DNA of 64,000 bases from Chiloscyllium plagiosum (GCF_004010195.1 NC_057718.1:91411145-91475144), one strand, 5' to 3'. Positions 105 through 58,643 are shown, counted from the first letter of the stretch. Notes: generated by a model from the letters alone, not told the origin. A program made the numbers and translations.

Positions 105-922
105 TTCTGGATTAGTGGTGCTGGAAGAGCACAGCAATTTAGGCAGCATCCGAGGACAGGCAAAATCGACGTTTCGAGGAGGGTGGGGGTGGGGAGAGAG
201 TAGCATAGAGTACAATAGGTAGGTGGGGAAGGAGATGAAGGTGATAGGTCAGGGAGGAGAGGGTGGAGTGGATAGGTGGAAAAGGAGATAGGCAGGTAGG
301 ACAAGTCCGGACAAGTCATGGGGACAGTGCTGAGCTGGAAGTTTGGAATTAGGATGAGGTGGGGGAAGGGGAAATGAGGAAGCTGTTGAAATCCACATTG
401 ATGCCCTGGGGTTGAAGTGTTCCGAGGTGGAAGATGAGGCGTTCTTCCTCCAGGCGTCTGGTGGTGAGGGAGCGGTGGTGGAGGAGGCCCAGCACCTCCA
501 TATCCTCGGCAGAGTGGGAGGGGGAGTTGAAATGTTGAGCCACTGGGAACACTTCAACCCCAGGGCATCAATGTGGATTTCAACAGTTTCCTCATTTCCC
601 GTTCCCCCACCTCATCCTAGCTTCTAACCTCCAGAAACTCGGTCCCCTGACCTGTCCGGACTTGTCCGACCTGCCCAGCTTCTTTTCCACCTATCCACTC
701 CACCCTCTCCTCCCTGACCTATCACGTTCATCTCCTTCCCCACTGACCTATTGTACTCTATGCTACTCTCTCCCCCCCCCCCCCCCCCCCTAGCTTATCT
801 CTCCACGCTTCAGGCTCTCTGCCTTTATTCCTGATGAAGGGCTTTTGCCCGAAACGTCGATTTTGCCTGTCCTCGGATGCTGCCTGAATTGCTGTGCTCT
901 TCCAGCACCACTGATCCAGAAT
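105..922. mobile_element. Fold-back Penelope-like element fragment (GIY-YIG endonuclease C-terminus plus pseudo-LTR)
   Basis: 105-177 is the reverse complement of 850-922, and ~180-428 of ~548-790. The minus ORF 349-552 reads PVAQHFNSPSHSAEDMEVLGLLH...RRLEEERLIFHLGTLQPQGIN, typical of a PLE endonuclease C-terminus. Hammerhead core at 831-858. Confidence 0.8.
831..858 (+). ncRNA. Minimal hammerhead ribozyme core (family A)
   Basis: CTGATGA-A-GGGC-TTTT-GCCC-GAAA-C-GTC: both catalytic boxes, a 4-bp stem II, palindromic ACGT in place of stem III, and a GUC cleavage triplet. Confidence 0.7.
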
Positions 923-1694
923 CCTGAAACACATTAAAGTCCATTGGATAAGACTATCCCTGGTTGGCAGTTCATGGCACAGATACATGCAGCTTTTCAT
1001 GAGGCACACCTTTGTACAGTGTTGTAAAACATAAACAATAAGGTGGACCTTGCCAGATGAATACACAATGCCACTGGTACTGTAACAGCTTAATATCATT
1101 ATGCTGTGCAATTCATATTGTCATGCCAAGTGGCAGACAAAACTCCTCTGTGGTATATATGCCTGTCGACACTGCAGAATATGAAAAAGGAGCCTCTACC
1201 ATTTTAGTTTTAAAAACAGGCACTGAGAAACAGGCTTAATTTTGTATTATTTGTAGTCATGGCAGATAGCAGGAAACCATGTGATATTGAAATAACATTT
1301 ACTAATCAAAAATAACATTCCACCAAACACGTATATCTGATCCTATTTAATAACACTAAAGACCACATACCTCACAATGTAAACGTGATCCATTAATTCT
1401 CATTACTTTCTGTGATCAATTTAGTTTTAGTTGCTGGGGAGTTTATTTGCCAATGCAATATTGACTTGGCTATATCATAAGAAGGAATGAACAAAGACCC
1501 AAAAGAAAAATTTAAACTTATATTTTGTCTTTCATGTCCCAAGGACTTCATACCAAATAACATATATTTCAAGTGATACATAGCCAAACATGGCAGTTAA
1601 TTTTCACACACTAAGGTACGTTCAACTAGAAAGTAGGAAGAAAATCAAATTAATCTTTTGTAATACTTGTTCAGGCAAATGTGGTTTAGATGGC

Positions 1695-2064
1695 TTTACT
1701 GTGTCCAGTTTTGGTCACACTGATAAAGGAAGGATATTATTAAATTGGTGAGGGTTCAGAAAAGGATAACCAGAATGTTGCTGGGACTGGAGGATTTGAG
1801 TTATAAGGACAGGCTGGATAGGCTGGGAGTTTTTTCATTAGAGTGTAGGAGGTTGAGGGGTGACCTTACAGAGGTTTATAAAATCATGAGGGGCATAGAT
1901 AAGGTGAAAAGAAAACACCAGAGGACATAGTAAATGGAGGTAAAGGTACAACATTTTTTTTTAAAATGACAGGTACATGAATAGGAAATGTTTAGAGGGA
2001 TATGGGCCAAACACTGGTGAGTGGGACTAGTTTAGTTTGGGATATTTAATCGGCATGGACACGT
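1695..2064 (+). mobile_element. CR1 LINE 3' fragment (RT C-terminus)
   Basis: RVQKRITRMLLGLEDLSYKDRLDRLGVFSLECRRLRGDLTEVYKIM is a CR1 ORF2 C-terminal motif. Confidence 0.85.
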
Positions 2065-2490
2065 TGGGATTGTATTCGTTGGAGTTTAGAAGATTAAGGG
2101 GAGACTTAATAGAGACGTACAAAATAATACATGGCTTGGAAAAGGTGGATGCTAGGAAATTGTTTCCTTTAGACGAGGAGACTAGGACCCGTGGACACAG
2201 CCTTAGAATTAGAGGGGGTCATTTCAGAACAGAAATGCGGAGACATTTCTTCAGCCAGAGAGTGGTGGGCCTGTGGAATTCATTGCCACGGAGTGCAGTG
2301 AAAGCCGGGACGCTAAATGTCTTCAAGGCCGAGATTAATAGATTCTTGTTGTCTAGAGGAATTAAGGGCTACGGGGAGAACGCTGGTAAGTGGAGCTGAA
2401 ATGCGCATCAGCCATGATTGAATGGCGGAGTGGACTCGATGGGCCGAATGGCCTTATTTGCACTCCTATGTCTTATGGTCTTATGGTCTT
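2065..2490 (+). mobile_element. Second, younger CR1 LINE 3' end adjoining or nested in the first
   Basis: LGLYSLEFRRLRGDLIETYKII...TRGHSLRIRGG...FFSQRVVGLWNSLP with stop at 2399; 3' UTR ends in (tcttatgg)n. Confidence 0.85.
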
Positions 2491-3836: not shown

Positions 3837-5953
3837 CTTGGGTGGGCAAGGTAAGAAATCACACAACACCAACTTATAGATCAATGGGTATATTTGAAAA
3901 CACTAGCTTTTAGAGTGCTGCTCCTTCATCAGGTGCTAATGAGAGAGGAAGACCCTAGACACAGAATTTATAAGGAAAAGATCAAAGGCACATACAATTC
4001 ATGCAAACCAATTGAACATACCTAAGATGGCTCTTACATCTTTAATCATTTGGAATGGAGGTGGAAATTTTGATTGATTAATATGCAAATCCCAGAATTT
4101 CTGTCAAGTCACTGCCCTGAGATAAGTTAAGGTGTTATCAGTATAAAGGAGGTTACACCTCTGGTCAAAGAATGTATTTTATGTGTGACGTCTTGTTTGG
4201 AGTTTGTCTGTGTCCTAATCTGGAGTCAGACTGGTTTTATTTCCAAAGTAGGAGTTTATAAAATTTGAAAGAGTGTGTGCGAGTGTGAGGGAGTTTGTGC
4301 ATCTGAGAGAGAGTGTGTGTCCGTGTGTGTGTAAGAGATACTGTGTGTGTGCGTTTAAGAGAGAATGTGTGCAAGTGTGAGGGACTACAGGTGTATGCAT
4401 CTGAGAGAGTGTGCATGTGAGTGTGTATGTATGAGAGAAGGTCTGTATGTATGAGAGAAGGTACGTATGAGAGAATATGTGTGTGAGAGTGTATAGTGCT
4501 GTGGAGTCACTGTAGGGCAACATGAACCCAAAATCCCTGTTGAGGTCATCCTCATGGGTACCGAACGTGGCATCAGCCTCTGCTCGGCAATTCTGAGTTG
4601 TTGAGTATCCTGAAGTCCTGTCTGGTGATTGTCCGTGGTGTCCATTTATCCATGGTCATAGCATCTGCATCGTTTCACCAATAAACCATTCCTCAGGGCA
4701 TCCTTGCCTGCAACATATGCGATGTACAACGTTGGCCAAGTCATATGAGTAACTGCCGTGCATGTGGTGGGTCATGTCCCCATGTGTAATGGCAGAATCC
4801 ATGTCAATGCTCTGACATATCTTGCAGAGACTGCCCTGACATGGTTGTGTGGTGTTTTGGTCGATGTTGTCCTGAAGGCTGGGTATTTGCTGCGAATAAT
4901 GGTCTATTTAAGGTTTGGCGGTTATTTAAAGGCAAGTAGTGGATGTGTAGGAAGAATCTTGGTGAGGTATTCATCATCGTTGATAATGTGTTGCAGGCTG
5001 AGAAGAACATAGCGTAGTTTCTCTGCTCCCGGGAAGTAATCCTGAAGGGTACTCTATTGGTTTTATCCTGCATCTGTCTTCTAAGGAGGTCATTACGGTT
5101 TTTTGCTATGGCACATCAGAACTGGTGATCGTTGAGTTGAGCATCGTACCCCGTTCTTATGAAGGCCTCTTTAACACCTTCAAGTTTCTAACGCATCCTT
5201 CCTCATCTAAACAGATCCTATGTATGTGTAGGGCTTGTCCATAGGGGTTGGCTTTTCTAATATGTTTAGGGTGGAAGCTCAAGAAATGCAGCACTTGTAA
5301 GGTTATCTGTAAGTTTGTGATAGAGTGAGGTATTGAGTTGTCTGTCCTTGATGGAGGTGCGTGTGTCCAAGAATGAGATTGATTCCAAAGAATAGCCCAT
5401 GGTATGTCTGAGGGTGAGATTTTGTGAAATCTGTGGGGTGAATTTGCATATACAGATACATTCTATTTCATTCAAAAAGCACACAATTTGTAGACAGTCA
5501 GTCAATGTGGCATTTTATAAACTCCTACTTTGGAAATGAAACCAGTCTGACTCCAGGTTAAGCCACAGACAGACTCCAAACAAGATCTCAAACCTAAAAT
5601 ACATTGTCTGACCAGAGGTGTCTCCTCCTTTACGTTAATGACACCCTAAGTTATCTCGGGGCAATGACTTGAAAGAAATTCTGGGATTTGCATATTAATC
5701 AATCAAAGCCTGTACCTCCATTTTTACTGATCAAAGATTTAAGAGCCATCTTAGGTGTGTTCAATTCCTTCAAATGAGTTGTATGTCTCTTTGATCTTTT
5801 CCTTATAAATTCTGGATCTAAGGTCTTCCTCTGTCACTCTGACCTGATGAAAGAGCTGTGCTCCGAAAACCAATGTTTTCAAATAAATCCATTGGATGTG
5901 TCTTATGATTTTTGACCTTTTCCAACCCAGTCAACACCAGTACCTCCACATCA
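3837..5953 (-). mobile_element. Penelope-like retroelement with inverted pseudo-LTRs, RT C-terminus and GIY-YIG endonuclease remnants
   Basis: ~3837-4264 is an inverted copy of ~5512-5932. Between them, minus-strand remnants YSLESISFLDT...SLYHKLTD (RT thumb side), DKTNRVPF, and a Cys-rich/GET endonuclease region ending LQDTQQLRIAEQRL. Eroded hammerhead cores near 3906-3932 (-) and 5844-5870 (+). Confidence 0.8.
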
Positions 5954-8900
5954 TGTTTCAATGGAGTCAAACCTGTAAAATTTCATCACCACAGTCACTT
6001 TCACAAGCACAGGAGATTTAGTTCTTGTCTTGTTAATGTGGTCATATTTGTGAATGCAGCAGGTGTCAGATTTTCGTGATGTTACAAGCATAGAAACAAA
6101 GAAAGCAGGAAGAAGGGTAGGCCATTTGGCCCATTTAGCCTACTTCATTATTAGTATGATGGTAGCTGATCCTCTATCTTAATGGCGTAGTTGTGCTCTC
6201 TCTCCAAACCACTAGTCACCTTTAGTGCATTTTTCTCCTCAATGTACTAAATGATTTAGTCCCACAGCCTTATGTGGTGGATAATTCTGCAGCTTCACCT
6301 GTCAATTAAATTGAACAGTCCGGAGGAGTGAAAATACTCGATTTTTTTCACTCCTGAGATTAATCATAAAAGTATTCGAATTATTTTTAGGTGTGTGTTG
6401 TTTCAATTCAGTATTTAGTTGACCAATAATATAGCTTTTTTTGTATAAATAAGTTAGATAGATCTCTTGAATTAATCAAAGTAAGGAGTTAGTTTTATTA
6501 ATTACTTACTGAAGTAAAGTATAAAGCTTATTAAAAAGGTAAGAACTCAGTCTGTGGCATAGATATACAAGCAGAATACCAAGTTATAGGGAGGGGAGTT
6601 TAGGTTGGAACAAAGCTAAAGTCCGTAAGTAAAAGAATTATACATTCCCAAGATTCCTTTGGAGCTCTAGTGGTGTTATGGACAATGTTAGGTTGTTGTT
6701 CTTCTGGATGCAGTCTCTTTTAAACTGTACACTATTATAGAATGGGTAATATAGTTTTATTCTTAAACTCTCTAACTCTATGATTATTCCAACTTGTGAA
6801 AAGGACAGAGTCCAACTTCGAAAAGAACTATTGAGGGAGAGCTGATGTTACTCTTCCCTCCTACAGGCCTTCTTAATGTTACTACACTCTGTAATAAACA
6901 GACAAGCTTAATCATAGTTTTTCATAAGGGGGAAGTTTTGGTCATGGCACACAACTGAGGCCATGTTAAAAAAGGAGTTTCATTCTCTTGTTGTCAATGA
7001 TACGATGCCCCTGAAATTGTTCAGAAGTCTTCAGTAATCTTATGCACTGTCAGTTCTGATTGTTCCCTTTTGTCTCTGGTAGTTTCTACAGATGAGATGC
7101 TTGCTGCTTATTTCCTTAGGGTTTTGTCCAAAGAATGACAAATATTACATTCATAGGGAAACTGTCCATACAGTTTTCCTGTTAATCCACATAAGAGGTT
7201 TTTAGAAAACTTTGACATTTTAAAACAGTGTCCTTGCTCATTTAAAGGCTTTTTTTTCATATGGAAGTCCCAGAATTAAATAAATTGATGGAATTAAAGA
7301 TTAATAGTCCATATATTCCAACTCTGAGACAGTGAGGACATCCTTACTTACATTATAGCTCCATGAGCACTGTAGGAAGATGCGACTCTCCTTTCAATTC
7401 GCAGTCCCCACCCCAGTTCCAGCAGCCTCCCCTGCTCTGTATGATCTTTGCTCATTCTCCAAATATTCCAAAGATACTGCCTAGTAGTGCACCCATTTCT
7501 GGGAGCAACTAGAGTCATAGAGATAAACTACTTTGTGCAAAAAGCCTTAACGTCAGCAAGAATTTCTTCAGTACCTTTCACACTACTTCTGATAGACTTC
7601 TGCAACCTGAAACAACTAAAGAAAACATCGAACACTTGTAGCACTGTGACAGTCAGAAAAAAGAAACAACTGGCTACTAACCTGTGTCCCTTTAAAAATC
7701 ATTGGTACAATGTTAGATATTTTCTCATTAACCTGATGTACCTCTGAAGAAAATAGTTGTTGAACATGGGAAGTAGGAATACTACCACTGCACCACAAAA
7801 GCCCAACTAAGCCAGGCCTCATGTTAGATATTTTCTAACCAAACTGGTCAGATATACTGTGACATATTTATAGAGTAAGTGGGACCTGAACATAGGCCTC
7901 CTGGCTCAGAGGTACGGACACTACCATTGCAACATAGCAGCCCTCCAGGTGGGATGGTTTTGTTGCTGCTGAGACCATTTAGTTGTGAGAGTTAAAGATA
8001 GAATGGACTGCAGTGTGGAGCTCCAAACTGACATTGCAGGTGGGAAATCAGTATGGCTCACTGATTACTTTTATGATCTGCCAGTAAATGTTTTCTCTAC
8101 GCTTGTACTCAAATGACAGTTGACACAATTTGCCCCAACAATGTCCATGCACATCACATCTATCATTTTAGACCTCCAAGAGCATTCATGGTGAACACAC
8201 AACAGGCATTATTTAACTCAATTTCTCACATTACAGTTCTCTTCTTTGTGAGTATTTCCAACTTTGACAGTGTCATGGACCCATAAAAGTATGGGCTTTG
8301 ATTTTGCTCTTTTGGGAAAGGAACCAATTTTACTAACGTAAACGAAGCATACTTTCTTCCCTTGGACTTTTACTTGAGAACTTTCAAATCCAAAAATAGC
8401 ATTTTAAAACTAATACATGGACATTATTCTACCAAAGATGAGTACAAATGCACAAATAAAAATGACCTAAATAATAATCTATTTGGAATTTTACTGCAGT
8501 TGTAATCCAAAATAATTGAATAATCCTTAAATAAGTAAACTTTGACAATATTGGAGAAATATTTGAAATTCATCATTGGACAAAGCATTACCCTTGATTC
8601 CATATATAGACTGTATTATCTGACAGCAGTTCAAGTCTTTAAGTAGGAAAACTCCTCTTTCAATTCAATAGACTAGAATCTCTGATTAATGCAGATTATT
8701 TTGCTTCTAGGCTTGTGTGGAAGGCTCTGTGCCTTCTATAGCTGTGATGTTCATACCTGTAAAGAAGAAAGCTGGGATCAGCTGAAGCTTTCAGAATAGT
8801 GCAGTGGGCTGAATTTTCCCAGTCCCTGAACAATAGTGAGTCAGTTGGGAAAAATGGGATTCTTGAACAAACCAAAAAAAGTCAAATTTTCCACCCAAGG

Positions 8901-13829: not shown

Positions 13830-14639
13830 TGGAGAAAGTGAGGACTGCAGATGCTGGAGATCAGAGTCAAAATGTGTGGCACTTGAAAAGCACAGCCAGC
13901 ATCCGAGGAGTAGGCGAGTCGACATTTCAAGCATAATCTCTTCATCAGGAATGTGGGGGCCTGCTGAGAGATAAATGGGAGGGGGTGGGGCTGGGTGGTA
14001 GGAGTCTGGGAATATGACAGGTAGATGAAGGTGGGGGGGTGATGATGATAGGTCAGAGCAGAGGGTGGAGTGGATGGGTGGAGAGGAACATGGACAGGTA
14101 GGACAGTTCAAGAGGGTAGTGCCAAGTTGGAGCGTCGGATCTGGTATAAGGTGGAGGGAGGGGAGATGAGGAAACGGGTGAAATCGACATTGATGCTGTG
14201 TGATTGGACGGTCCCAAGGCAGAAGATGGGATGTTCTTTACTTATCTCATCTTCCAGCTTGGGATCCTTCAACCACATGGAATCAATGTCAGTTTCACCA
14301 GTTGCCTCATCTACGCTCCTCCCATGTTATCCCAGATCCAATTCTCCAACTCAGCACCACCCTCTTGGACCGCTCTACCTGTCCATGTTCCTTCCCTTCT
14401 ATCTGCTCCACCGTCTGCTCTGACCTATCCCCATCACCTCCCCCCCCCACCTTCATCTACCTATCACATTCCTAGCTACCTTCCCCCAGCCCCACACCCC
14501 TCCCATTTATCTCTCAGCCCCATTGAACCCCCCCCCCCCCCCCAACATTCCTGATGAAGAGATTATGCTCAAAACATCGACTCTTTAGCTCCTCAAATGC
14601 TGCTTGACCGGCTGTGCTTTTCCAGCACTACGTTTTTCA
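13830..14639. mobile_element. Fold-back Penelope-like element with 13-bp TSD
   Basis: ~13870-14200 is inverted relative to ~14280-14639. LIFQLGILQPHGIN endonuclease tail. Eroded hammerhead cores at ~13921-13948 (-) and 14551-14578 (+). TSD cactgttaaatac at 13817-13829 and 14640-14652. Confidence 0.8.
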
Positions 14640-17570: not shown

Positions 17571-17571
17571 A

Positions 17572-20593: not shown

Positions 20594-20890
20594 ATTAATC
20601 TAAAGTAGTTTGCACTCTTAATGAAATGAAACAGTTTTACCTTTCAGCTTGTGAAATGATACGTCCCTTTTGGTTAATAGTGACTCCAATATCTAACTCC
20701 AAAAGTAGCTTGAAGATTATTACCCAACAATTACTAGAACTCTTACCAATTTTTATAAATGCACCACAGAAATCATCCTAACTGGATACATCACAGCTTG
20801 GTATGGTAACTGCTCTGCCTGAGACCACAAGAAACTATAGAGTTGTGAACATAGCCCAATCCATCATGAAAACCAGCCTTCTTTCATTGA

Positions 20891-21122
20891 GCTGAAAAAT
20901 GAGATGCTGGAAAAGCGCAGCAGTTCAGGCAGCATCCAAGGAGCAGGAGAATCGACGTTTCGGGCATAAGCCCTTCTTCAGGAATGAGCTTCATTCCTGA
21001 AGAAGGGATTATGCCCGAGACATCGATTCTCCTGCTCCTTGGATGCTGCCTGACCTGCTGCGCTTTTCCAGCAACACATTTTTCATCTCTGATCTCCAGC
21101 ATCTGCAGTCCTCACTTTCTCC
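20891..21122. mobile_element. Short palindromic Penelope-derived element with two divergent hammerhead cores
   Basis: Arms mirror around gaatgagcttcattc (~20989). Minus core 20954-20981 is intact; plus core 20997-21024 is eroded. Confidence 0.8.
20954..20981 (-). ncRNA. Minimal hammerhead ribozyme core (family A)
   Basis: Minus strand reads CTGAAGA-A-GGGC-TTAT-GCCC-GAAA-C-GTC. Confidence 0.7.
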
Positions 21123-35180: not shown

Positions 35181-37313
35181 GGCCTTCGTGTTCATCGTTT
35201 ATTCCCGGTTACAAACAGGTTCAGTTATACGGCGGGGAGGGGGGGGGGGGTGCAGGTGTTCTCTAACCACTGGATATCTGCGCATTCCTATCTGGGAATA
35301 TATTTGGTTCCTACTCTGATTAGGCGCTATTCCATTTATTTCCACAGAAGTACGTATTATTTTGAGAGAGATATATAGACTCCATGTGGTGTGTAAAAAT
35401 ACCACTTTCTGTAAATTAAAAGTTGTAAAACAGTTTACAATGTAAAATGTGAATGTTAAGTATTTATCGTAGTAACCTGCCACACACGGCTACAGATCTG
35501 GAATCCGGTCTGAGAGACAACTATAGTGTTAGCATCACAGAGGGAGCTAAGGTTTAACAGCATCATTCTGACACAACAGGTTAAAGTGAACCGACTCTCT
35601 GCAGAAATACTTTCATCTCGAGAAGTCACAAACGCGAGGGACTTACCCAAGGCGCAACATCTGCTTTACTTTCAAAATGGTCTGGCAGAAACGGCGGCGA
35701 GAGAAACAGAAGCTGTTCCTCTCCAGAAAGGAAAGAGACAGGTTCGATTCGAAACTTAAACTCCGATTCTGTCTCCACAGGTGCTGCCAGACCTACTGAG
35801 TGTGCGGTAATTCTTGAAACGCTCTTGCCAGAATGAAAATCACTTGATATCTTCCCCTTGTCAGATTCACCAATACCCTGAAGAATCTTTCTTCACCAGA
35901 TTAATTCCGTTTACAAATACAATTAAACATTTGAGGGTAAGGTTTTTAGAATGAGTAAAATCAGTAAAACAGACTGAGGATATTTTAAAAATGATCAGAA
36001 TCGAGGGGGGAGTGGGTTGATGCCCTTGTGAGGAACTTTGATGTGGTGGTTAAAGAAAGTAGTTTAATATCGCTGACAATTGTTTAAACAGTCCCTAAAC
36101 ACGCCATTGATTTATTAATGATTTATTCATGCGACCGCGCCATCCCAATTTCAATCGCTTTCTGATTGCAGTTACTTGTTTACAATGTGGAGCATGTAGG
36201 CCGCGTCCAGAGCATCTCCGGGGAAGATATACGTCGACGCCTGAAAGCGTTTTCTCGCTGGGACCAGGAAATAATAGGATTAGGCAAGCAACCCCGGAAG
36301 AAGATATTGTAAAATGAATGATCTTTCTAAAAAAAATATGAAATCTGCAAGTTCTTAAACATTATGTCAAAATTTATTTTAAGAAAAAGATTTGAAATAC
36401 TGAAACAAAAAAAACGGGAATTGCTGGAGAAACCCAGCAGGTCTTGCAGCATCTGTGGAGAGAGAAAACATATCGACCCCAATGACCCTTCTTCAGAAAT
36501 GCTGAGTTCATCTGCAGAGAGAGGTGATTGAGTACGTTAACATCATCCGGTCTTTGTTCAACGCTGTGACTATAATTGAAGGTACATGGAGCCGCTGCAC
36601 GGATCAGTTGACTGTAAAGTTCTGTGAGACCAAATAATTCCTTTGAACTAACATCCCATAACAAAATCGCCAGCGCCCAAAAATATTTACAATAAAAGCT
36701 TCGCAAATATAGCACCTTTGGCATCTTGGGTTTGCTTATGACGCTTTGTGCCTGCCTTGTAGGATTCCTAACCCAATTGCTTTGGTTTTGCCACTTAGCG
36801 AACGTTCTCCATTAACTGGGTCGGGGATTTCCTCTTGGCTGCTTAGAAGCGCATTTTCACGGATGACTGATGGGCACAGGGTGGTCGGTCAGGGAGGACG
36901 ATGAACACCTTGCATTTCTGACGCTGGGTTCTAAACTATTTTGATGATCTTCGAAAGGATTTTAGTGACCCGGGGATTCTGGAATATTCTGAAGACGCCG
37001 TGAACTTATTTTAGTACATCGATTGACGGTTAAATGGCCAGAGGCCATGTACATAGAATTTAGCGCAAAGGAATACAACTGATACAACAAGACAAATCTA
37101 ATTTGATTTTCTTTTAGAAATGAACCCACAGGTCTCAAGTTACTGTGCAAAGGGTGTTTGGATTAAATAATAGTCGCTCGGAAAGAAGTATCAGTAACTT
37201 GCTAAAAAAATGATTTGAGTCAAACTGTTTGTTTTGACTTTAGATTTACTAACCTGGCTGCGACCTACAGTCACTGCGGTGATACATTTAGTTTCCTGAA
37301 TGACAATTTAACT

Positions 37314-37507
37314 TCAAAGTTTGTGAGAAGATTTGTAGCTCGGGTCCTCGTTGCTGTGGTTCTGTTCGCCGAGCTGGAAGTTTTTGTTGCCAACGTTTCG
37401 TCCCCTGTCTCGCTTCACGGGAGCCTCCCAAGCACTGAGGATGTCACCTAGATAGGGGACGAAACGTTTGCAACAAAAACTTCCAGCTCGGCGAACAGAA
37501 CCACGGC
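37314..37507. mobile_element. Short fold-back Penelope-derived element with perfect 12-bp TSD
   Basis: 37353-37410 is inverted relative to 37450-37507; TSD gacaatttaact at 37302-37313 and 37508-37519. Confidence 0.85.
37432..37471 (+). ncRNA. Minimal hammerhead ribozyme (family C)
   Basis: GCA-CTGAGGA-T-GTCACC-TAGATA-GGGGAC-GAAA-C-GTT-TGC: 3-bp stem I (GCA/TGC), stem II with one mismatch, GUU triplet. Confidence 0.7.
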
Positions 37508-38380
37508 GACAATTTAACTATTGCAGACCTTAAACTTGCTGCCGTTTTGAAGAGTTGCGAAAACAAAGGCTGAAGGTCAATGGATTTTTAAAAATATGGG
37601 TAAGAACGAGGAATATTAAAGAAGGATTCCTTTCAGGCCAGTGGCATTATAAGGAAAATCCATGGGTGAAGTTTATTGTTTCGAGTTAAATGGTGGTCAC
37701 GCTAGAAAGAAAGCGGATTTTCCCCATAGGTTTGCAACGACATCCTAACCCCCCTCCCCCCCCCCCCCCCCCACACACACAACCCCATTGTGTTCATGCC
37801 TTTAATGATGAGAGAACATCTTCCCAATGGGAAAGGGAGTCTATCACTGCGCTGTTGCAGTTTTCCATGTGGGAAAAATTCTCATTCCTCTTCACTGGGG
37901 ATACATCCCAAGAAATGATGAATTTTTACACACACACACATACACACAGGCGTTACCCTTTATTTTCAATACATGTAAATGGCAGTCTAAAGAAAATAGT
38001 TTTAAAAAATGTTGGTGCCCGCCCACCCCCATCTTTTGTCCATAATTGCCGGGAAGATCAATGCGAGTAATTTGCAATATGACCACTCTAGTCTTTGATT
38101 TGCATCCTGGCTCCTAATGTCGACAATAAACTGCATTTTAACTGAAAGCAATATATGAACCGAGCAAAATCCTAATCTGCAGATCCTGCTGCAAATATGC
38201 ATTATCCTTCAACAGGTGGACATTTCCTCGGGCCCAGTAAAAGACAGATTTCAATCATTTAGCACACTCGCTGCATTTAAGATTTCACAAAACAGATGAG
38301 AAATGACGCTGGGCAGAGCAGGCATCAGTTCAGGGACAATGCGAGTGTCCTGCACAGCTTCGGGTCAAATTAGTATAAAG

Positions 38381-38496
38381 GTAAAAACAATGACTGCAGA
38401 TGCTGGAAACCCTGGACTAGAGTGGTGTTGGAAAAGCACAGCAGTTCAGGCAGTATCCGAGGAGCAGGAAAATCCTGCACCACTCTAATCCAGAAT
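38381..38496. mobile_element. Truncated fold-back Penelope-derived element
   Basis: Family A sequence; TSD caaa(t/g)tagtataaag at 38366-38380 and 38497-38511. Confidence 0.7.
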
Positions 38497-39445
38497 CAAA
38501 GTAGTATAAAGACTGTTTCCCCATGAAACAGGAGCGGGAAGGAGATAGTTGCAGTAACATATAGGACCATCAAAATATTGACTCAAGGGGCAAGTCAAAT
38601 GGAAGCTAATCATTCACACACACAGCGTCTCTCCCGACTCTCCCCGTTCGACCATGTTTCATTGCTTATGGGGCTAATTGAGTTGGTTGGTTATTAGTTT
38701 CCCCGTTTTGATTTAATAATCCCATCATTTTGAGTTTATTTTGCAACAAAAAGAACGATTTTAACATAATCACCGTAGCGATGTCCAGTATATAGCTAAA
38801 CACAGGCAATCCCTTTTACTTGACTTTTATGAGCAGAAATCAAGTTAGAACTCATTTTCAAACACAAGATTGAAATCACCAAAGAGCTATTCATTTTTAA
38901 ATCGATCACCGCTGGCATGGAAGTTTAGCTTGTGGGATATGGTGTCTCTTTCTCGATGTCAGTCAAATAAATCAAAGTCCCATTTGTCTTTAACGATTAC
39001 CTTTAAAGATGAACAGCGACCGGGACATTTGGGAGCGGTGATCATATTTAATTACATCGCGCCTGTTGCGTCCGGTATTCTTTCAGTCACCCATTTAACC
39101 ACGTCCTTCGTACATTTTATTGTCATTATTTTTGAACGCGATAGTCAATTCACAGGTCAAAGTGACTGCACTTCAACCTGATTTCCCAAATTTCATTCCA
39201 GTTCCCATTCGATTTGCAAAGTAATTCTCCGTGAAATAGAATTAGAATTATACAATTCATAGATCCTGTAATTCCCATTCTATTTCATTGATAATTACTT
39301 TCCAGTTGATAACATACTGCGTCTCTCTTTCCATCAAGTATGGGGGGGGGGGGGAATGGTGTTTCACCCTCGTTCCGGGGCAGAGTCACGGGAATTGCTC
39401 CGTGGTTCTCCCCAGTCCCATGAGATCGCAGTGTCATGTCCTGAT

Positions 39446-40019: not shown

Positions 40020-40380
40020 ACAGAGTTTGCTGGAGAAACTCAGCAGGTCTGGCAGCCTCCTTGCGGAAAGTAGAGTTAATGTTTCGAGCTGACTTCGCTC
40101 TTGGTAGGGAGAACACTCTTACACCTCAGTTTGCATCTATTTTACACTTTAACCCTCTCACCGTCATTAACAATCCCTTTGTTTTTCTGCATTGTCCTTT
40201 TCTGCTTCTGTCATTCATATATATATAGATATATAATTAGCAACACCTTTCAGTTCTGAAGAAGTCATCTCAGACTCGAAACGTTAATTCTGTTTCTCTC
40301 TCCATGGATGCTGCCAGACCTGCTCTGCTTGTCTGGATTTTATTTCAGATTTTCAGCATCCACAGTATTTTGCTTTTATT
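40020..40380. mobile_element. Fold-back Penelope-derived element (family D) with hammerhead core at 40256-40285
   Basis: 40020-40087 mirrors ~40276-40325; CTGAAGA-AGTC-ATCTCA-GACT-C-GAAA-C-GTT. Confidence 0.65.
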
Positions 40381-40588
40381 CAGCTCTAATTATATATTAA
40401 TAGACCCAAGTCCTGGGGAAAGATCAGGTACAGATACAAAGCTGATCCTTGGGATCAACAGATTTAGGAGCAAAACCACCAAATTCGTGACCTAATAAAC
40501 CAAATCACTACAAAAAAAACCCAAAGAAATGCTGGAAAACAGAAATTGCTGGAAAAACTCAGCGAGTCTGGGGAGAGAAAGCAGAGTT

Positions 40589-40619
40589 AACGTTTCTGGT
40601 CGAGTGATCCTTTCCTCAG
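40589..40619 (-). ncRNA. Slightly eroded hammerhead core (family D)
   Basis: Minus strand agtt-CTGAGGA-AAGGATC-ACTC-GACCA-GAAA-C-GTT-aact, with 4-bp stem I agtt/aact. Confidence 0.55.
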
Positions 40620-40742
40620 AACTCAAAACTTCGGCTTGACTTTTTCAGAAATGTTTCTGTTTCTAATTTACGGCAGCAGCTGTTCTTTCGGGTTTTATTT
40701 TAAACTACATTTCTCATTTGTTTACCTGGTCTTAGATTGTTA

Positions 40743-40944
40743 GCTGAAAATGTGCTGCTGGAAAAGCGCAGCAGGTCAGGCAGCATCCAAGGAGCAGGAG
40801 AATTGACAGGACTGCCATTCCTGAAGAAGGGCTCATGCCCGAAACGTCGATTCTCCTGTTCCCTGGATGCTGCCTGACCTGCAGCGCTTTTCCAGCAACA
40901 CATTCTCAGCTCTGATCTCCAGCATCTGCAGTCCTCACTTTCTC
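40743..40944. mobile_element. Short fold-back Penelope-derived element with intact hammerhead core (40821-40848, +)
   Basis: CTGAAGA-A-GGGC-TCAT-GCCC-GAAA-C-GTC; inverted arms; TSD cttaga(t/c)tgtta at 40731-40742 and 40945-40956. Confidence 0.82.
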
Positions 40945-43739
40945 CTTAGACTGTTACCCTCTTTTTGGGAAGTCTTTTTTTAAAATAGAAACTGCCTTGT
41001 GGTTGAGGGTGCATTGAAGGAATTAGAAACGAGGCTACTGGGATAGTGATAAATAAGCCATTAAAACAGACAGTAAAAGGAACCAGGGCGCTTTCTCAGG
41101 CCAGCATAATACAGAGTACACGTTAAACCAATACATTTACAAAACAAAAACATCCAGAACTTCTTTATTTCACGGAGCGGCCAATGGAACGGTCGCCGGG
41201 TGGATTAGAGCTATGTACACCTGGAAGCCAAGTTTAGAATTAGTACAAACGGGTTTCAGCTCAAAGTGACCCTGCAATGAAGAGGAATGAGACTCCCTGG
41301 CCACGATGCTCTCACTCAATTTGACAGCAGCAAATCCAAAAGTGTCGCCAATGAGGCTGTGTAACACGCTGGGGTTTGGACGCCTTCTGGAAACACTGTG
41401 AATCCCGCTTGCCTTCAAGTAAATGGGCACCAGGAACAAATGCATGTTTTAAAAAAAATGTCGGGAGCAAGTGTACGGTTAAAAAAAAAGGAAGGCAGGA
41501 GCTCGGTAAAGGAGACAGCTGCAGCATCAAGTGGATTGGTTTAAGATCCAACGAGGGATGGAATAGATCTGCTGAAGCTCCCACTTTTCTGTATTTTGTT
41601 ATCTTACCTTTCCAGAAACGGGTTCGTGAATTTACAATATTCTCACTTCAACAGGTATTTCTGTGCTCATTAAAGTTACAGACTCAGAGCTGGGCTAAGG
41701 CTAGTGGAGGAGGGGGTTGGTCAGAGATCCTGTCAGCTCTCCCCTTCAGTTGCTGTGTTAACGCTCGGGTATCCAGGGAGAAGGAGCATCTGCCGGCACC
41801 ACGGAGGGCTGTCGAGAGCGATGGGGGCTGCAGCTTGACCCCGGACAATATTATTTCAGTTTAAATAAGTTTCCGTTCACTTTCTATCAATTTCCGTTAA
41901 CCATTGGGTTGTGCCGTGTGTTACCATTCTGTCTTTTAACCATTTGAGGGTTTTGTTTTAAGTAAAAGCCACTCTGCCCATCCGTCGCGTCGCTCAGGGT
42001 AATGTTGAATCGGAAACATTCAAAATGCCTGCCAAAGACCATCAGAGCTTTGCCGCAGACGGGGCTATTTTTAAATGTCAGCGCAGTAACAGCGCTTCCT
42101 AACTCGTCTTGCAATTTCCATCAGTCCCATTTGTAACTTAGGAAAAATGAGAATGTCGGTGCCGGGGCAGCTTAACAAAGACAAGTTAAAATTTTATCGG
42201 AAATAACATTATAGCCATAAAGCAGAAGAGCCAAGAGACAGCAAGATGCAATAAAAATTAGAACGTTATTATTTATAACTTACTCTTGCGGGTTTTAAAT
42301 ATATAAAAGATGTCTGGAATTTAAACTTAATATATTTTTCCTGGTAAAGTTCTTCCTTTGCAGTTTCTAAGGAAACCGCATCAGTATTAATAACAAATCA
42401 GGGATAAACGTGATGTTCATGTGAAAGAAATGATTGGGACCCGAAAACGGTAGCAGAATTCTTCCTGTCCAATAGCCTGGGACTGATCAGTGCCTAATGG
42501 GCTCAGTCACAGCTCGGTACTCTCTCGGCAGCACTGGCCTGAAAAGGAGTTGTGCTGTCCTTGTGTCTTCATGAGCTTCTCATCTCGCTAGTACCAACCT
42601 GGTCCAGGACCTAGTCAGGATGCACACTGGGTAGGGAAGTTGCAGGTGACCAGCCCACAGGAGGGACCGTGAATATTTTCTATATTTTGTGATACCGCCC
42701 AATTGCCCAGCATTAACTAAATGGCAACTGTGTATTCAGAAGGATTTTTTTTATAGCCACGGCAGATTTTGACTTGCTTTCAGAGGCTCAGCGCCGTTAT
42801 TTAAAACAATACAAACCTGCGGCGAATGCTCCACATTGAAGACCGACAGAATGGCTTGGCACTTAAGAGTTTCTCTTACAACGAGTCCCGCAAATTAGCC
42901 ACACCATTAATTGAAATGATGGCAGGCATGGTAGCTTTGATTACATTTTAAATTAAATATAAAATTAAATATATTGTTAGTGTTGCACTAAATTTAATGG
43001 ATGTATGTATGTATCTTCACTTATTTCATTAAACTGATAACTTCTCTCAGGATTGATAAAGTCAGCAATTTCCTGGCTATATTTCAATAACACCACAAAT
43101 GGTGACGGGGGGGGGCATGGTTTACATCAGAAGTTTCATCCTTTCAAAATAATTGATATTCCTCTGGTCAGCGGGAGCCAATTTTCATTTATCAATGCAC
43201 TTCAAGTAAACCTCTTCCCTGACTAAAAGGTAAATGTAGATTTCTTCTGGTTACGCTTTGCACAATTCCAAGTCTCACACCATCTTCATTTAGCAAATGC
43301 TCCTTCATTGTTGCTGGCTTGAAATCTCAGAGGGTCCTAACTTACAACACTGTAGGTGTATTTAGATCACACAGGCTATCAGTGGTTCAGGACGGAGCTC
43401 ACCACCAATGTATCTCTCTTTGCTGAGCAGACATGGAACAATTAGAAACTGCCTCCACTTGGGATCATCAGCCACATACACAAGCAATTTCTATAAAGTG
43501 CGTCCATGGCACAGTGTAACAAATGGACTGTACATGGCCCAACCATCACCTTCACTGAGCATTTAGGGATGGGCAATAAATACTCATTGCGTGAGCGATA
43601 GCTACCTCCCATGAACAAATAAATAGTGCATATTTACACTGCTTTAATGAAAATAAAGATTTTCTAAAAAATGCAGCTCGGAACATGAATATTTCTTTCC
43701 ATAATATTCCTAAAACAAATGATTATTTATTGTCCACTG

Positions 43740-45269: not shown

Positions 45270-46140
45270 CCTCTCCATCAGGCAGAAGATACAGAAGCCT
45301 GAACACAACAACTTCATCCCGGCTGATATTAGACTGATGGACTCTCTTGCATCAAATAATAGCGATCTTAGTGACGTTGATCTCGCCTAGCGCACATCCA
45401 GTGTAATGTAACCTGTATGTCTCCAAGTGTTTTTACAACCTCTGATCTGTACATCCTTGCTTCCAATGGTCTGCCAGCACTGCTCGTAAACAAAGATTTT
45501 TGCAAGGTTTGTGAAGGTTCGTAGCTCAGGTTGAGGTTTAGGGTGTAGGTTTGCTCGCTGAGGTTTTTTTCATCCGTGTGTAGGGCTACGAGGGAGAGAG
45601 GGTCGTGTCTTTTTGTGGCTAGCTGGTGTTTGTGTATCCTGGTGGCTAACTTTCTTCCTGTTTGTCCTACATGGTGTTTGTGGCAGTCCTTGCATGGAAT
45701 TTTGTAGATGACGTTGGTTTTGTCCATGGGTTGTACTGGGTCTTTTAAATTTGTTAGTTTTTGTTTGAGTGTGTTGGTTGGTAGCAACACATCTATGCTG
45801 GGACAGGCTAAGCAAAGACATGTCAGAGAATTCCTAGAGGCCTGGCACTCCAACCACAACGCCATAATCAAACACACAGATCTAGATGCCATCTATCAAC
45901 CCCTCAGAGAACGAACAGGAAATGACATCACCACAAACCCCATCTAGGAGAAAGATATAAATAGAAAGCAGGAGACAACAGCTTCGCTTCACTTGGAGGT
46001 CGTCACTGATGATGTACCTAGCCAGGCAATGAAACGTCTGGATATCAAACCTACAGCTCAGCGAGCAAACCTACACCCTAAACCCCATAAACAAAGATTT
46101 TCACCGTACTTCAGTACATGTGACAACAAATCAATCAACT
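45270..46140 (+). mobile_element. Rex1-like 3' fragment hosting a Penelope insertion
   Basis: ccatcaggcagaagatacagaagcctg (PSGRRYRSL) at ~45275; the tail resumes after 46101 and ends acatgtgacaacaaatcaatc. Confidence 0.65.
45501..46087. mobile_element. Penelope-like element with internally inverted GIY-YIG endonuclease, inverted termini, hammerhead core and 14-bp TSD
   Basis: Minus ~45570-45790 reads KDPVQPMDKTNVIYKIPCKDCHKHHVGQTGRKLATRIHKH; plus ~45790-45910 reads REFLEAWHS..LDAIYQPL; 45535-45562 mirrors 46057-46084; CTGATGA..GAAACGTC at 46006-46038; TSD taaacaaagatttt at 45487-45500 and 46088-46101. Confidence 0.88.
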
Positions 46141-54005: not shown

Positions 54006-56571
54006 CATTTAAAATAACTGAAAATGAATAAAAATTGTTAGTTTCATTCGTGCATAATCAATTCTTAGTAAATTAAATCAGTGATGCCACACCATCTGAT
54101 ACTTTTGATCACCTGTAGACTTGTTATTCAGCCTGTCGACTCGCCACTCACACCATTTGTACTTATCTGTTGACACTGGAATTATCATGCCATTATCTCT
54201 CCACCTATATATTCTGTGCTTGTGCATGCCCCTCCACTTCACCCGACGAAGGAGCAGTGCTTCTAAACCTTGCGATTTTAAATAAACCTGTTGGAGTATA
54301 ATCTGGCATTGAGAGACTTCTGGCTTAGTAAATTAAATATTCTTGATATTAAACTTTGAAAACAGGTGAAATACTGTCTATGTGCCTGAAAAAATAAGCA
54401 CAACTTGAAGACCCTTCCTGAATCGTGACCAGTGAGTGAGGCCTGTTTTGTGGTTGGGCATGATGTGGGTGAAACAAATCCTGACCTGGCAGCAAAGATG
54501 ACAGAAACATAAACAAATTGCAGCCTTGGAAATAATGCACATATATTTAAAATGTGTTGGCTTAGCTGTTTCTGTCTGGATTGTTATGGTATTAATAGAA
54601 GCAAATCAAGAAACGAGATTCCTGGGCTCTTGCAGAACAACCTACAAGAGCAATGCTATAACAGCTACCTCGATGAAATATACATACACACATAGACATA
54701 CACACACACATATACTTATCCGTGAGATATATAATTTACATATATATATGTATATATCATTTGTTTATTTCAAACATATTTTATGCTTTTTGTGTTGTGA
54801 TAGTGTGACATTTTAATCAGTTTTCTGAGAGCGGTTTGTGGCAATTAGTGTTTACAAACAGTGATCTGAAAGGATTTTGTAATTTTTGGATTGTTAAAGT
54901 TATATAAATTAAATCAAATCCAATTCGGCGTTTTCCTTGGTTATTAGAGGTGGATTTAGAGGTAGTGAAGGGTAGAGAAAATGAGAAAAAGCACGTGTTG
55001 AATAGGAATACCCATGTGTCCCCAGCTCCTCCTGCTTTTCCCAGCAGTGACTTGTAAGAGTGGTCAGTACCCATCAGATTTTCAACCCAAAAATGAAATT
55101 GACATCCAGAAAAAGATACTAAAGGGGAAAATTTAGTTTTAGGATTCTAAGAACTATTTGAAGAGACTTAATCTTCATTTTGCTGAGATGCTCTAGTAAA
55201 GGTGTGCAACGAGTTTCAGAATCAAGTATAACATTTTTGAAAAATTCCAAATGCTATGAGGTTTATTTATTTTAAACATGATTTGTTAATTGTGCATTGT
55301 TTCCATTTATTTGCATTAGGAAGGTGGATTCCAGATGGCCAATGGACTATTTTAAGTCCATTACCTACCTGGAATCTAGAGCTTCCCTCCTGTTTTTGAA
55401 TTCAGTTTGGGGACATTGCAATTGAAAGCACCTAAACAAAAAATATATACTTTATATCAGGGAGCAGACATCCAAACAGAGGTGAATATTAAGAAGTTAT
55501 AAATTAAACACATATTCTAATAAATCCAAACTCTTGAGAAAAATGTTACAGAACTCAGTGATAGAGCACATGTTGACAAAATGATGATCTTCTCAGATTG
55601 TATAATAGGATGGAGAAATAATAGTAGCTACAAGAAAACAGTGAATTAAAATGAACCAGCATACTGATAACTGTTAAGACTCAAATGTTTTGCTAGTTTC
55701 TTTTCTAAAGACATTTGTTCTGCAGCAGATCTGCTTTATGCAGTTGTGTCTTTTCAACTGGTTCCTTAATTTATTTTGATGTTGTATTTATCAATTTAAT
55801 CTCTTTCAACTAAAATTTTTCACAATAAATTGGAACTCAGAAGTGTTGAAAGCAAAGTGAAATGTGAAATTCAGTTAGCATTGTATTATAATCTCAGAAC
55901 TGGATGAAAACACATTAAGACAGTCCAATTTTAATATTTAACATTTTAAAATACCTGTCAGATACTTTCACTTAAGTTCAAATGTTTCTCTCTGTAAATA
56001 ATCTATCAGTAGTCAGTGCACAACCTCCAAATAATTAATTTGTAAAGACGAGTCTTCATAAAACAAGTTAATATTAGGGTCATCTCTATCTATTCCTCAT
56101 GTCATCTTTGTTTTTGAAAATATCGATGCTATATTTAATTGTTCGATGTTAGTACTCAGTTTGATTGAATTAAAATCAATTTTCAAGAGCATCGGGGCAA
56201 CGGGCAAAACAATTTTACAAGCAGAGTACTGGGGTATCCCAACTGCCTTCATGCAGTAGCTACATACATACAATTTGCAAAGGATCTTATTGCATAGCAA
56301 TCTGGTAGGAGAATACTGGAGTATTTCCCCCAATTCCCCACCACTTCGTAAAAAGCAAATAGCACTTAATCAGTCAACTAAGAGTAAAAAGATCCAACTC
56401 AGCACAAACTAGGAATAAAGCTTGACATCTTCCTGGTCTGCAGGATATTCACAGCTGTCTTATTACACAGTACATATTACTACACAGTAATGTGTCTTTC
56501 TCCTTAGCTGCCTGAGGAAAGGTAGAAAGATCAATTTTCTATAAAGTTGATAACTATCGAGTGATGTATAT

Positions 56572-56914
56572 TCATAGAATCCCTAACAGTGTGAAAGCAG
56601 GCCATTTCGCCCATTGAGTCCAAACCGACCCTATGAAGAGCATCCCACCCAGACCCATTTCCCCTACACTATCCCTATAACCCTGCATTTCCCATGGTTA
56701 ATGCACATAACCTGCATTCCCTGGACACTATGTGAAATTTAGCATGACCAAACCTGCACATCTTTGGACTGCGTGAGGAAACTGAAGTACCCAGGGCAAA
56801 CCCTTGCAGACATGGGGAGAATATGCAAACTCCACAGTCAGATACCAGAGACTGGAATTGCACCCGGGTCATTGCCCCTGAGAGATAGCAGTGCTAACCA
56901 AGGAGCCACTGTGC
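56572..56914 (-). mobile_element. tRNA-derived SINE (HE1-like), near full length
   Basis: Minus head gcacagtggctccttggttagcactgct...gacccgggtgcaattcca (A/B boxes), central core, and CR1-like tail ending gggattctatg. Confidence 0.75.
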
Positions 56915-58542
56915 CTGGAAATATTGATTACTTATTTGACTAAGTGTAACAATACAAGTTAAATGTGAATAATATCTGTTGCTGAGAGCAGCTGTCACAT
57001 AAATGTAGTGTGTCGTGCTGTGCACCGGTAGCAAGAGATGGACATTTGTTCATGTTGGTAAAATACAGTAGTTTTTGTACAAAACAAATTCACAAATTTA
57101 TGCAAAGCCATCAGCATTTTCCTATCATCAGGTTCTATCCCTTTGCTCAGTTGCAGATATCTGTCTATTGTTACCATATATATTAGTTCAATTTTTACTG
57201 TATACAAGAAAACACTTTTCATAATTCATAATTTTAGATAGTTTACCTTGAATGACTAAGCAATTTTATTGTTGCTTGCATTTTACAGTGAGGAAAACAG
57301 ATACACTTTTTCACTATCATCATGATCTGGCACCATTTTGAATAGTCTTAAGGATAAGAAAAAATAGTAAGATACAACTTGAAGAGAGTCCATCGGTCCT
57401 GTGCCAGTTCATCATCAATGACATTTGCACTACCATCTCTCCTCCACCACTTTGCCGTCTGCAACAGACCCAACCAACTTTGATGTCTCCACTCTTCAGG
57501 TGCCATCCTTTGCTACTGGGCGGCTTTTGTCTGCCACCACCTCACTGCCACCTGCGCCGGACCCACCAATGTCCGAATTGCATCTCTCACTGATGGGTCC
57601 AACTCAATGTCGCTGCAAAGCCCTTCCACCACTTCTTCATTGCTGCCAGCGCTGGGCTCACCTTGCAGACACTGCCTCTGTCGATGTTGTGGCTGCTGAT
57701 TCAGATGCCAGGTTCCATGCTCACTCCAGAAAAATAAGTAGGGGCTCACTTGCTACAGTCACAAGTTCCATGCTGAGCCCACTTGAGTTTGTGTTGGAGT
57801 TCATTGCTGCTGCTGATGCTGTCCAAGCTCAAGACATGAGGTAAGTAAAAAGAAAAGTAATCGGAGTGGATGTGCTCTACTCCTCTGCTACATTGATTGC
57901 TTTCACATAAAGGTTTCCTTCGATTTTGTTTATATATTTGTTTTTGAAGTCATGCATGTACTATTGCTGTTCATTGTTTCACACCTACTTTCTCATTTCC
58001 TTCCCCTCTTACAGGCATCCTTTCTTCTTTAACCAAAGGATGGGGTGGCAGCCTCTTTTAGGATGTGATATCTTTAGAGGTGTGGCATCAGAGCTAAACT
58101 AGCTTGAATATTTGCTGAGGTATGATTTCATACCTAAGTCACAGAGCAAACTGTTGTATTGATGTTTTGGTAGTTTTAAAATAAGCAGTACAAGCTTTCC
58201 AGCATCATTGGAGGAAATTGTAACTTTTTGAACTATTCTCAGCAGGGGGGTTTGGTCACATGTGGGAAACCGTAAAGACAGGGTACCACCCTCCCCTAAA
58301 ACTTGCCCAGTCCCAGAGGGGCCACATTCTGAGGAATGTTCATTGGTTGCAGGCAGGTCTTCTGCCCTGATCTGGTAGGACAGGAAGTCCCACCTCGGAT
58401 TCACTGGCAGCTCCCTGGTCTCAGCAATGTCACTGCAAGTTGATAAAATTCTTCCCCAAGTTTCACCAATACATTTGTCACTTGCTTTGTCATCTGATTT
58501 CTGCATTTCTCAACATTCCAAAGAAGCAAGCATAATGATGAC

Positions 58543-58643
58543 TTTCCTCATTCCTGAAGAAGGGCTTATGCCCGAAACGTCGATTCTCCTGTACCCTGGA
58601 TGCTGCCTGACATGCTGCGCTTTTCCAGCAACACATTTTCAGC
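58543..58643 (+). mobile_element. ~100-bp monomeric Penelope-derived insert with intact hammerhead core (58554-58581)
   Basis: CTGAAGA-A-GGGC-TTAT-GCCC-GAAA-C-GTC; TSD taatgatgac at 58533-58542 and 58644-58653. Confidence 0.8.

Follow-up and report, generated by a model that had tools for sequence, protein, structure and literature searches.

The closest described relatives of the repeats reported here are the minimal type I hammerhead ribozymes (min-HHRs) carried in the pseudo-long terminal repeats (pLTRs) of metazoan Penelope-like elements (PLEs), among them the fish elements Neptune, Poseidon and Xena (Cervera and de la Pena 2014, PMC4209133). We analysed 64,000 nucleotides of the Chiloscyllium plagiosum genome (GCF_004010195.1, NC_057718.1:91411145-91475144; the whole stretch is referred to as the window), for which a preliminary description had proposed a dense population of hammerhead-bearing, Penelope-derived retroelements. 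Our analysis supported the presence of minimal type I hammerheads, their Penelope origin, the number of about four families (A to D) and the high copy number. Judged from their sequence, the window repeats are parts of autonomous PLEs that encode a reverse transcriptase (RT) and a GIY-YIG endonuclease, and the ribozymes sit in the pLTRs of these elements. We consider it likely that several autonomous PLEs equipped with an endonuclease gave rise to the repeats by insertion and that most of the repeats are run-off stubs of uncleaved RNA.

Like the min-HHRs of PMC4209133, the hammerheads of the window have a type I core, an extra nucleotide before stem II, a palindromic sequence at 15.2-16.2 and a short helix I. 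As described there, they form several consensus families in one genome, occur mostly as single motifs from truncated PLEs and include opposite-strand pairs 100-700 bp apart. Family A differs in its shorter stem II (4 bp) and in a stem I of 2 bp, compared with a helix I of 4-5 bp in that report. Copy numbers are 56,654 exact matches for one family and about 224,000 two-box cores above control here, versus about 4,000 in coelacanth and about 9,000 in Xenopus (PMC4209133), although the descriptors differ and the figures are not like for like. No shark name occurs in two supplement files of that article.

The insertions themselves resemble those of endonuclease-positive PLEs (PMC8557442, PMC3846280), which show 5' truncation, an adjacent inverted truncated copy, an optional one-sided tail of 30-40 bp, target duplications and occasional in-trans copying by pLTRs. 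They differ in that the commonest unit here consists of ribozyme and tail only and that its 5' end is sharply placed, 3-5 nt upstream of the core. In the Poseidon element PAc of the anole Anolis carolinensis, two internal RT start sites define the tail, both nicked strands are extended, uncleaved RNA is the dominant template and a hammerhead lies just upstream of the tail (PMC11167929), all of which is either seen or inferred here; the PAc open reading frame (ORF) starts inside stem II, whereas in subfamily A1 the tail precedes the main ORF, whose start lies about 135 nt downstream of the cut. Animal non-LTR retrozymes (bioRxiv 10.64898/2026.07.22.740005; PMC7229834) are likewise non-coding, pLTR-derived and equipped with a type I hammerhead, but they are head-to-tail repeats with a ribozyme in each unit, whereas the copies in the window are single or head-to-head. 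Tandem units were absent from the window, and head-to-tail units were found only in a rare class of loci elsewhere in the genome that carry an ORF start.

Hammerhead cores and their place in Penelope-like elements

All eight cores that had been listed as intact or near-intact were verified in position and strand (Table 1). Stem II is kept in five of them (831, 20981, 40821, 58554 and, with one A-G mismatch, 37435) and broken in the cores at 40256, 40619 and 46006 (stem II scores of 1, 0 and 2, respectively). A descriptor consisting of the two catalytic boxes and the stem III palindrome matched the window nine times, versus a mean of 0.19 and a maximum of 2 in 200 dinucleotide shuffles; when a stem II of at least 4 bp was also required, six matches were left against a shuffle mean of 0.015. 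The ninth two-box match, at 30296, lies outside all families and is probably due to chance, and it is also among the six. Family sequence was recognisable at all nine positions that had been called eroded, of which 28160 is a fold-back without the CUGA box. As in min-HHRs, the CUGANGA and GAAA boxes enclose stem II, which is paired in the five cores that keep it; helix III is absent from the monomer, and a palindrome at 15.1-16.1 that permits dimers is combined with U-H at the cut.

Family A is the biggest repeat cluster in a self-BLAST, with seven loci. In agreement with the preliminary description, the repeats show no sign of a tRNA short interspersed nuclear element (SINE): ARAGORN found no tRNA and a B-box scan gave one weak match in the window, whose repeats do not have the tRNA head with A and B boxes by which tRNA-derived SINEs are recognised. 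BLAST with family representatives, which are real genomic copies, covered 4,071 bp of the window in 36 segments, some arms being split into two. Neighbouring pairs are head-to-head (inverted) and not tandem dimers. An Infernal search with Rfam had been proposed as a check; cmscan returned eight matches at E values up to 5, none of them to a hammerhead family. The Rfam scan misses the minimal form, so this check fails here. Its best match, mir-2756 (46 bits, cut-off 61), was below threshold and was rejected, as it corresponds to the family A fold-back stub at 28097..28281.

In the 3.56 Gb, gap-rich assembly the two-box descriptor had 233,832 matches compared with 9,875 in the reversed control, an excess of about 224,000 cores or approximately one core per 16 kb. 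The family A motif of 29 nt with intact stem II had 56,654 exact matches and none in the control, and the A1 tail had 81,263. Exact anchors gave 319 matches for family B, 4,825 for D and 2,458 for C; family B is old and is under-counted in this way. The window (9 in 64 kb vs 233,832 in 3.56 Gb) holds only about twice the genome average and is therefore no special cluster.

The families differ in stem II (GGGC/GCCC in A, GGGTC/GACCC in B, 6-7 bp in C, GGAGC/GCTCC in D), in the stem III palindrome (ACGU then C/U in A, B and C; AGCU then A in D) and in stem I (4-5 bp in B, 3 bp in C and D, 2 contiguous bp in A1 and A2, 4 bp in one A subfamily). The flanks of A and B are related (72-75%), and those of C and D showed no BLAST similarity to A or B or to each other. 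Between families, stem II, stem I and the palindrome (ACGU vs AGCU) switch in pairs, in agreement with the compensatory change that had been proposed, while the boxes stay constant; the earlier reading of the boxes needs correction in that the GGAGC/GCTCC family has GAAA-GCT-A instead of GAAA-C-GT(C/T). This covariation fits selection on the ribozyme in source elements. Among dispersed copies of A1 the picture is different, so excess conservation of the core is found between families but not among copies within A1. In a sample of 65 A1 arms, slightly biased to an intact first box, CpG sites of the core were changed in 9.9% and non-CpG sites in 1.1%, vs 1.9% downstream; G12 was altered in nine arms and 33 cores were fully intact. 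The decay of the A1 core is neutral-like, and purifying selection on dispersed copies was not seen. PLE hammerheads have been reported to cleave as dimers (Lunse et al., as summarised in PMC6765202). We also observed that an ATG in loop II of A1 opens an upstream frame of 26 codons 5' of the predicted cut (L190:1380-1550 and family A stubs), which cleavage would be predicted to strip along with the cap.

In families A (367-546 on the minus and 546-614 on the plus strand), D (4632-5415, minus) and C (45563-45781, minus; 45786-46016, plus), remnants of RT or endonuclease coding sequence were detected with tblastn immediately upstream of the ribozyme, and RT or GIY-YIG remnants occur on the strand of the ribozyme in 3 of 30 family B loci, so that all four families are connected to PLE coding sequence. 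A Pfam scan of the window frames found no PLE domain in these short remnants. Elsewhere, at locus L109, a frame of 497 aa ends about 220 nt upstream of an A2 hammerhead. Its GIY-YIG match is weak (E 2e-4, just below the Pfam cut-off), and its RVT_1 match, at residues 18-107, looks like a CR1-type piece fused upstream; the PLE assignment therefore rests on a homologue search, in which the PLE part (393 aa) had 169 longer homologues, and among the 120 listed most carried RVT_1 and many GIY-YIG. The order of RT, then GIY-YIG at the C terminus, upstream of the pLTR, which defines endonuclease-positive PLEs, was established from partial frames. At 143 loci the long tail continues exactly into a frame, which aligns from residue 1 with the N-terminus of homologues (E 2e-18). 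Ribozyme and tail were found before the ORF start and after the ORF end, on different copies, so both ends of the autonomous element carry them. Long open frames that could have represented intact full-length elements were rejected, since they mostly reflected assembly gaps. The Cys-rich linker between RT and endonuclease, a criterion taken from PMC8557442, is present in the A2 frame and absent from the C frame, which points to a probable Neptune type for family A and a probable Penelope/Poseidon type for family C; families B and D are probably of Neptune type too.

The 5' ends of the copies and the RNA proposed as their template

The pLTR of every family carries a minimal type I hammerhead, behind which comes a tail that ends preferentially at one of two 3' points, and in family A the ORF starts right after the long tail. 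For the analysis of ends, 109 A1 arms were gathered by tail alone around the first 100 matches listed (scaffold C1, 0-3 Mb), and seven gap-adjacent arms were dropped, leaving 102. The 3' ends of their tails were bimodal, about 37 nt apart. Among 33 head-to-head pairs, 23 combined a long with a short tail, nine had two short tails and one had two long tails. Exact target duplications measured 12-16 bp in 15 of these pairs and 7-9 bp in four (19/33 with at least 7 bp). The inverted truncated copy, the one-sided tail and the target duplication by which PLE insertions are recognised were thus all found. At L003, L023 and L190:1440-1512 both family A tail end points lie at a pyrimidine-rich stretch followed by AG, resembling a splice acceptor, just before the ORF start; RNA reads contained no spliced joints.

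The 5' ends of the A1 arms were concentrated at the upstream edge of the ribozyme. Counted upstream from the first C of the core, 39 of the 102 arms ended at 0 to +8, 31 of them at +3 to +5; a further 31 ended inside the ribozyme, three at the cut (±2 nt), three downstream of the cut, two at +9 to +39 and 24 at +40 or beyond. Expressed as an ending rate per nt, this is 0.23 at +3 to +5, 0.016 inside the ribozyme, 0.006 at the cut and 0.004 beyond +5. Similarly, 15 of the 19 family B arms that reach the core stop within 0-6 nt of it and 12 of 24 family D arms within 0-9 nt. The position of the peak in A1 and B resembles an initiator. Since the 5' ends accumulate 3-5 nt upstream of the ribozyme and not at the cut, and the ORF follows just after the tail, the stubs have the appearance of cDNAs that ran off at the 5' end of PLE RNA that had not been cleaved. 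In the literature searched, which left most subscription journals outside, no published description of such a pile-up at the ribozyme edge was found; nor did we find a paper describing shark PLE hammerheads or this interpretation of the start site, with Dfam and Repbase also outside the search.

Two other origins of the ends have to be weighed against these counts. If the stubs were ordinary 5'-truncated products primed at the 3' pLTR, the pile-up would reflect RT stalling or cDNA joining at the ribozyme edge. Strong 5' truncation is typical of PLEs (PMC8557442), 24 of the 102 arms do extend well past the ribozyme, and of the 31 ends inside it 24 are in fold-backs, where local palindromes favour junctions. 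A stall, however, is expected on the 3' side of stem II and not 3-5 nt beyond the whole motif; the peak is equally sharp in single arms (16/48) and fold-backs (15/54), with the rate falling off past +5; and arms that carry the ORF start, and hence derive from the 5' pLTR, also stop at the ribozyme edge. This origin is therefore improbable. If the stubs were instead copied from RNA that the ribozyme had already cut, or from circles closed at that site as in a proposed model (PMC4209133), their ends should lie at the cut. A few arms do begin there (window 38379-38474 and 3 of the 102 A1 arms), but the ending rate at the cut is below that of the ribozyme interior, most stubs retain sequence 5' of the cut, and tandem junctions link variable ORF positions to the 5' edge of the ribozyme, not to the cut. 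For A1 the counts and rates largely refute such an origin, which was rejected and which we regard as very improbable.

The loci with an ORF start are informative in this respect. In 30 such loci the first arm stopped at or before +6 in 12 of the 13 that could be scored, and a second arm on the same strand was present in 16, seven of them starting at +2 to +9. These tandems are what would be left by jumps from the RNA 5' end into the ORF start, and not by circles closed at the cut.

Copying of uncleaved PLE RNA could account for the different classes of insertion as follows. The element RNA would start at an initiator-like site that lies about 4 nt upstream of the CUGA box. Both DNA strands would be nicked by the RT/GIY-YIG protein, which would prime internally at two tail sites. 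Priming on the 5' tail copy would run off at the RNA 5' end after about 100-140 nt and yield a hammerhead-and-tail stub, and two stub cDNAs joined at their ends would give the fold-backs, long-tailed on one side and short-tailed on the other. The longer copies with endonuclease remnants would come from priming at the 3' pLTR, while jumps from the RNA 5' end to the ORF start would give rare head-to-tail dimers. The template would mostly be uncleaved RNA. The ribozyme would be selected in source elements only; there two copies would probably pair through the ACGU/AGCU palindrome and cut as a dimer, about 32 nt from the RNA 5' end. Most genomic copies would be dead on arrival and a small minority re-copied.

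The preliminary description had gone further and proposed a distinct system of non-autonomous ribozyme retroelements. In this scenario the hammerhead-and-tail module (100-140 nt) or the fold-back would be a SINE- or retrozyme-like element with an internal promoter, transcribed from dispersed copies and copied in trans by the PLE protein. Several observations point this way. The stubs start at an initiator-like site, and the Penelope promoter of Drosophila virilis, with its initiator (Inr) and downstream promoter element (DPE), is internal (PMC2377424). The junction of the window fold-back at 100-923 (529-559) recurs at eight further loci, nine in total, with different flanks and nested single-nucleotide differences; three of the nine copies are in gap-free loci. 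The filler-containing junction of 40742-40948 is common to locus L002, one A1 haplotype was found in six short arms and no long arm, and elsewhere in the genome there are ribozyme units arranged head to tail with short ORF-start pieces between them. Retrozymes have been reported in one chondrichthyan (bioRxiv 10.64898/2026.07.22.740005), and pLTR-driven copying in trans in a rotifer (PMC3846280).

Against this, the five commonest A1 haplotypes span short and long arms and are carried by 55 of the 64 short arms (27+13+8+5+2). Fold-back junctions are mostly unique, with 31 distinct 50-mers in 33 pairs, and recurrent simple ones lie at microhomologies. The shared-junction lineage amounts to nine copies compared with tens of thousands; four of the nine, the window copy included, end at one assembly gap edge and may partly be assembly artefacts. 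Exact tail-to-ORF junctions number 143 vs the 81,263 exact tails, and the anole PLE protein requires RNA past the priming sites, to ORF nt 172 (PMC11167929), a part that the stubs do not have. Stub ends are fairly fixed, as a non-autonomous element would require, but the haplotypes are common to long copies and a single nine-copy derivative lineage was found. Given the PLE pieces, the haplotypes shared by short and long copies and the neutral decay, a separate high-copy non-autonomous system is weakly supported and is not the best reading; we judge it unlikely as the source of the stubs. Secondary mobilisation of fold-backs exists and is minor.

Two observations concern the re-copied fold-backs. 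Loci L114, L117 and L119 contain a re-copied sublineage with a tandem duplication of about 55 bp, present in several copies in L117. Positions 1-104 of the window, whose start is an assembly gap edge, travel together with the PLE fold-back at four of the nine shared-junction loci; this segment resembles a CR1-type LINE 3' end in minus-strand orientation.

A bolder combination of the two ideas can be formulated, although we think it unlikely. The first bases of stem I would be the start of the PLE RNA, which would unite initiator, ribozyme and the two priming sites in a single module of about 100-140 nt. An internal promoter would be retained in run-off copies, some of which would replicate in trans as minimal Pol II 'ribozyme SINEs' and so give rise to about 200,000 hammerheads as well as to head-to-tail units ancestral to retrozymes, with cleavage 32 nt from the cap acting as a switch between translation and use as template.

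Several results weigh against run-off copying of uncleaved RNA by autonomous PLEs or limit its generality. A gap-free full-length ORF was not recovered, assembly gaps being present in 11 of 12 candidate regions. The A1 sample covers the first 3 Mb of one scaffold and was collected by an exact 30-nt match, so young copies are favoured. No target duplication was found in 14 of the 33 pairs by an exact-match search, and simple fold-back junctions recurred at two loci and at three loci among these pairs. Family A2 showed no clear pile-up (3 of 12 arms at +4/+5 and nine at +35 or beyond) in an incidental sample selected by ribozyme, and the 5'-end samples comprise A1, B, D and A2, with no bias-free sample of family C. 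RNA reads, taken from about 2% of one raw single-cell poly(A) run (a second raw run mapped none), included 2,701 on a pLTR-ribozyme-ORF stretch; they lay on both strands with no pile-up of starts or ends and no splice signal, and 93% of them run into unrelated sequence. Minimum free energy folding of five cores, none of family D, as monomers and dimers did not recover the active dimer fold, these motifs being expected to need help, and stem I of A1 and A2 has only its 2 contiguous bp. In D. virilis the Penelope RNA starts 46 nt ahead of an intron that ends right at helix I (PMC2377424, PMC4209133), so that a start at the ribozyme edge is not general.

Map of the window

The mapped PLE copies are listed in Table 1. 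The tail pieces at 24143..24271, which were absent from the preliminary list, were found by self-BLAST.

Table 1. Copies of the four PLE families mapped in the window (pLTR, pseudo-long terminal repeat; coordinates from the first nucleotide of the window)
Feature	Position	Strand	Details
Family A2 inverted arm	100..543	-	GIY-YIG C-terminal remnant (352-567), 3' pLTR, ribozyme 5' half deleted, short tail; remnant 96.7% identical to L109 ORF over 60 aa (tblastn)
Family A2 sense arm	544..923	+	Final endonuclease codons, pLTR, intact hammerhead 831-858, short tail
Minimal type I hammerhead, A2	831..858	+	Stem II GGGC/GCCC, predicted cut after GUC
Family D PLE 3' part	3856..5440	-	Decayed RT C-terminus, linker, GIY-YIG (~4630-5415), pLTR, eroded hammerhead ~3906-3930; tblastn E 4e-10
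Family D inverted pLTR arm	5512..5963	+	Eroded hammerhead 5844, tail
Older family A fold-back pair	13831..14639	.	Eroded hammerheads 13921-13948 (-) and 14551 (+); endonuclease remnants; 13-bp target duplication
Family A1 head-to-head stub pair	20889..21122	.	Minus arm: intact core 20954-20981, short tail; plus arm: eroded core 20997, long tail; arms begin 6-7 nt upstream of core
Family D fold-back, tail pieces	24143..24271	.	
Family B fold-back	25966..26161	.	Hammerhead 3' half only
Family A fold-back	28097..28281	.	Without CUGA box
Family B stub	28342..28425	+	Core 28355, small deletion
Family B eroded stub	36381..36500	-	
Family C2 fold-back	37313..37512	.	Plus arm hammerhead 37435-37468; 12-bp target duplication
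Family A2 fold-back, tail only	38379..38500	.	Minus arm starts at predicted cut site; 10-bp target duplication
Family B pair	40022..40366	.	Minus tail 40022-40086; plus arm core 40256-40285, stem II broken
Family B stub	40536..40623	-	Core 40589-40619, stem II damaged; start 4 nt upstream of core
Family A1 fold-back	40742..40948	.	Plus arm: intact core 40821-40848, long tail, start 5 nt upstream of core
Family C1 (Penelope/Poseidon-type) fold-back	45480..46087	.	GIY-YIG N-half 45563-45781 (-), C-half 45786-46016 (+), hammerhead 46006-46038, tails both sides
Family D eroded stub	54205..54319	+	Core near 54243
Family A1 single stub	58541..58650	+	Intact core 58554-58581, short tail, 10-bp target duplication

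Outside the four families, self-BLAST showed unassigned inverted or self-similar repeats at 28992-29292, 39215-39304, 39443-39578 and 22733-22788. The segments at 1972-2399, 22914-23139, 43595-44501, 53582-54004 and 62129-62232 resemble 3' regions of CR1-type LINEs. A decayed LTR retrotransposon, which by resemblance we take to be Gypsy-like, occupies 15900-20593, with direct repeats of about 635 bp (88% identity) and an RVT_1 remnant at 18470-19045. A stop-free frame at 32538-34355 on the plus strand contains an orthologue of INSM1 (insulinoma-associated 1) with C2H2 fingers, for which the best PDB match was INSM1 (E 1e-109); no ribozyme stub was mapped at 30132-35733, around this frame.

Implications for Penelope-like elements

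The association of the ribozyme with PLEs and the occurrence of opposite-strand pairs from truncated PLEs are already published (PMC4209133, PMC8557442). What this genome contributes is scale, with approximately one core per 16 kb and tens of thousands intact, together with a very large natural record of PLE integration products. This record fits the 2024 in vitro result of two internal priming sites and an uncleaved template (PMC11167929), and it predicts the start of the element RNA to within 3 nt. For annotation, the stubs should be labelled as PLE fragments and not as SINEs, miniature inverted-repeat transposable elements (MITEs) or microRNA hairpins. The record makes two questions testable, namely the role of the PLE hammerhead and the origin of inverted pLTR structures.

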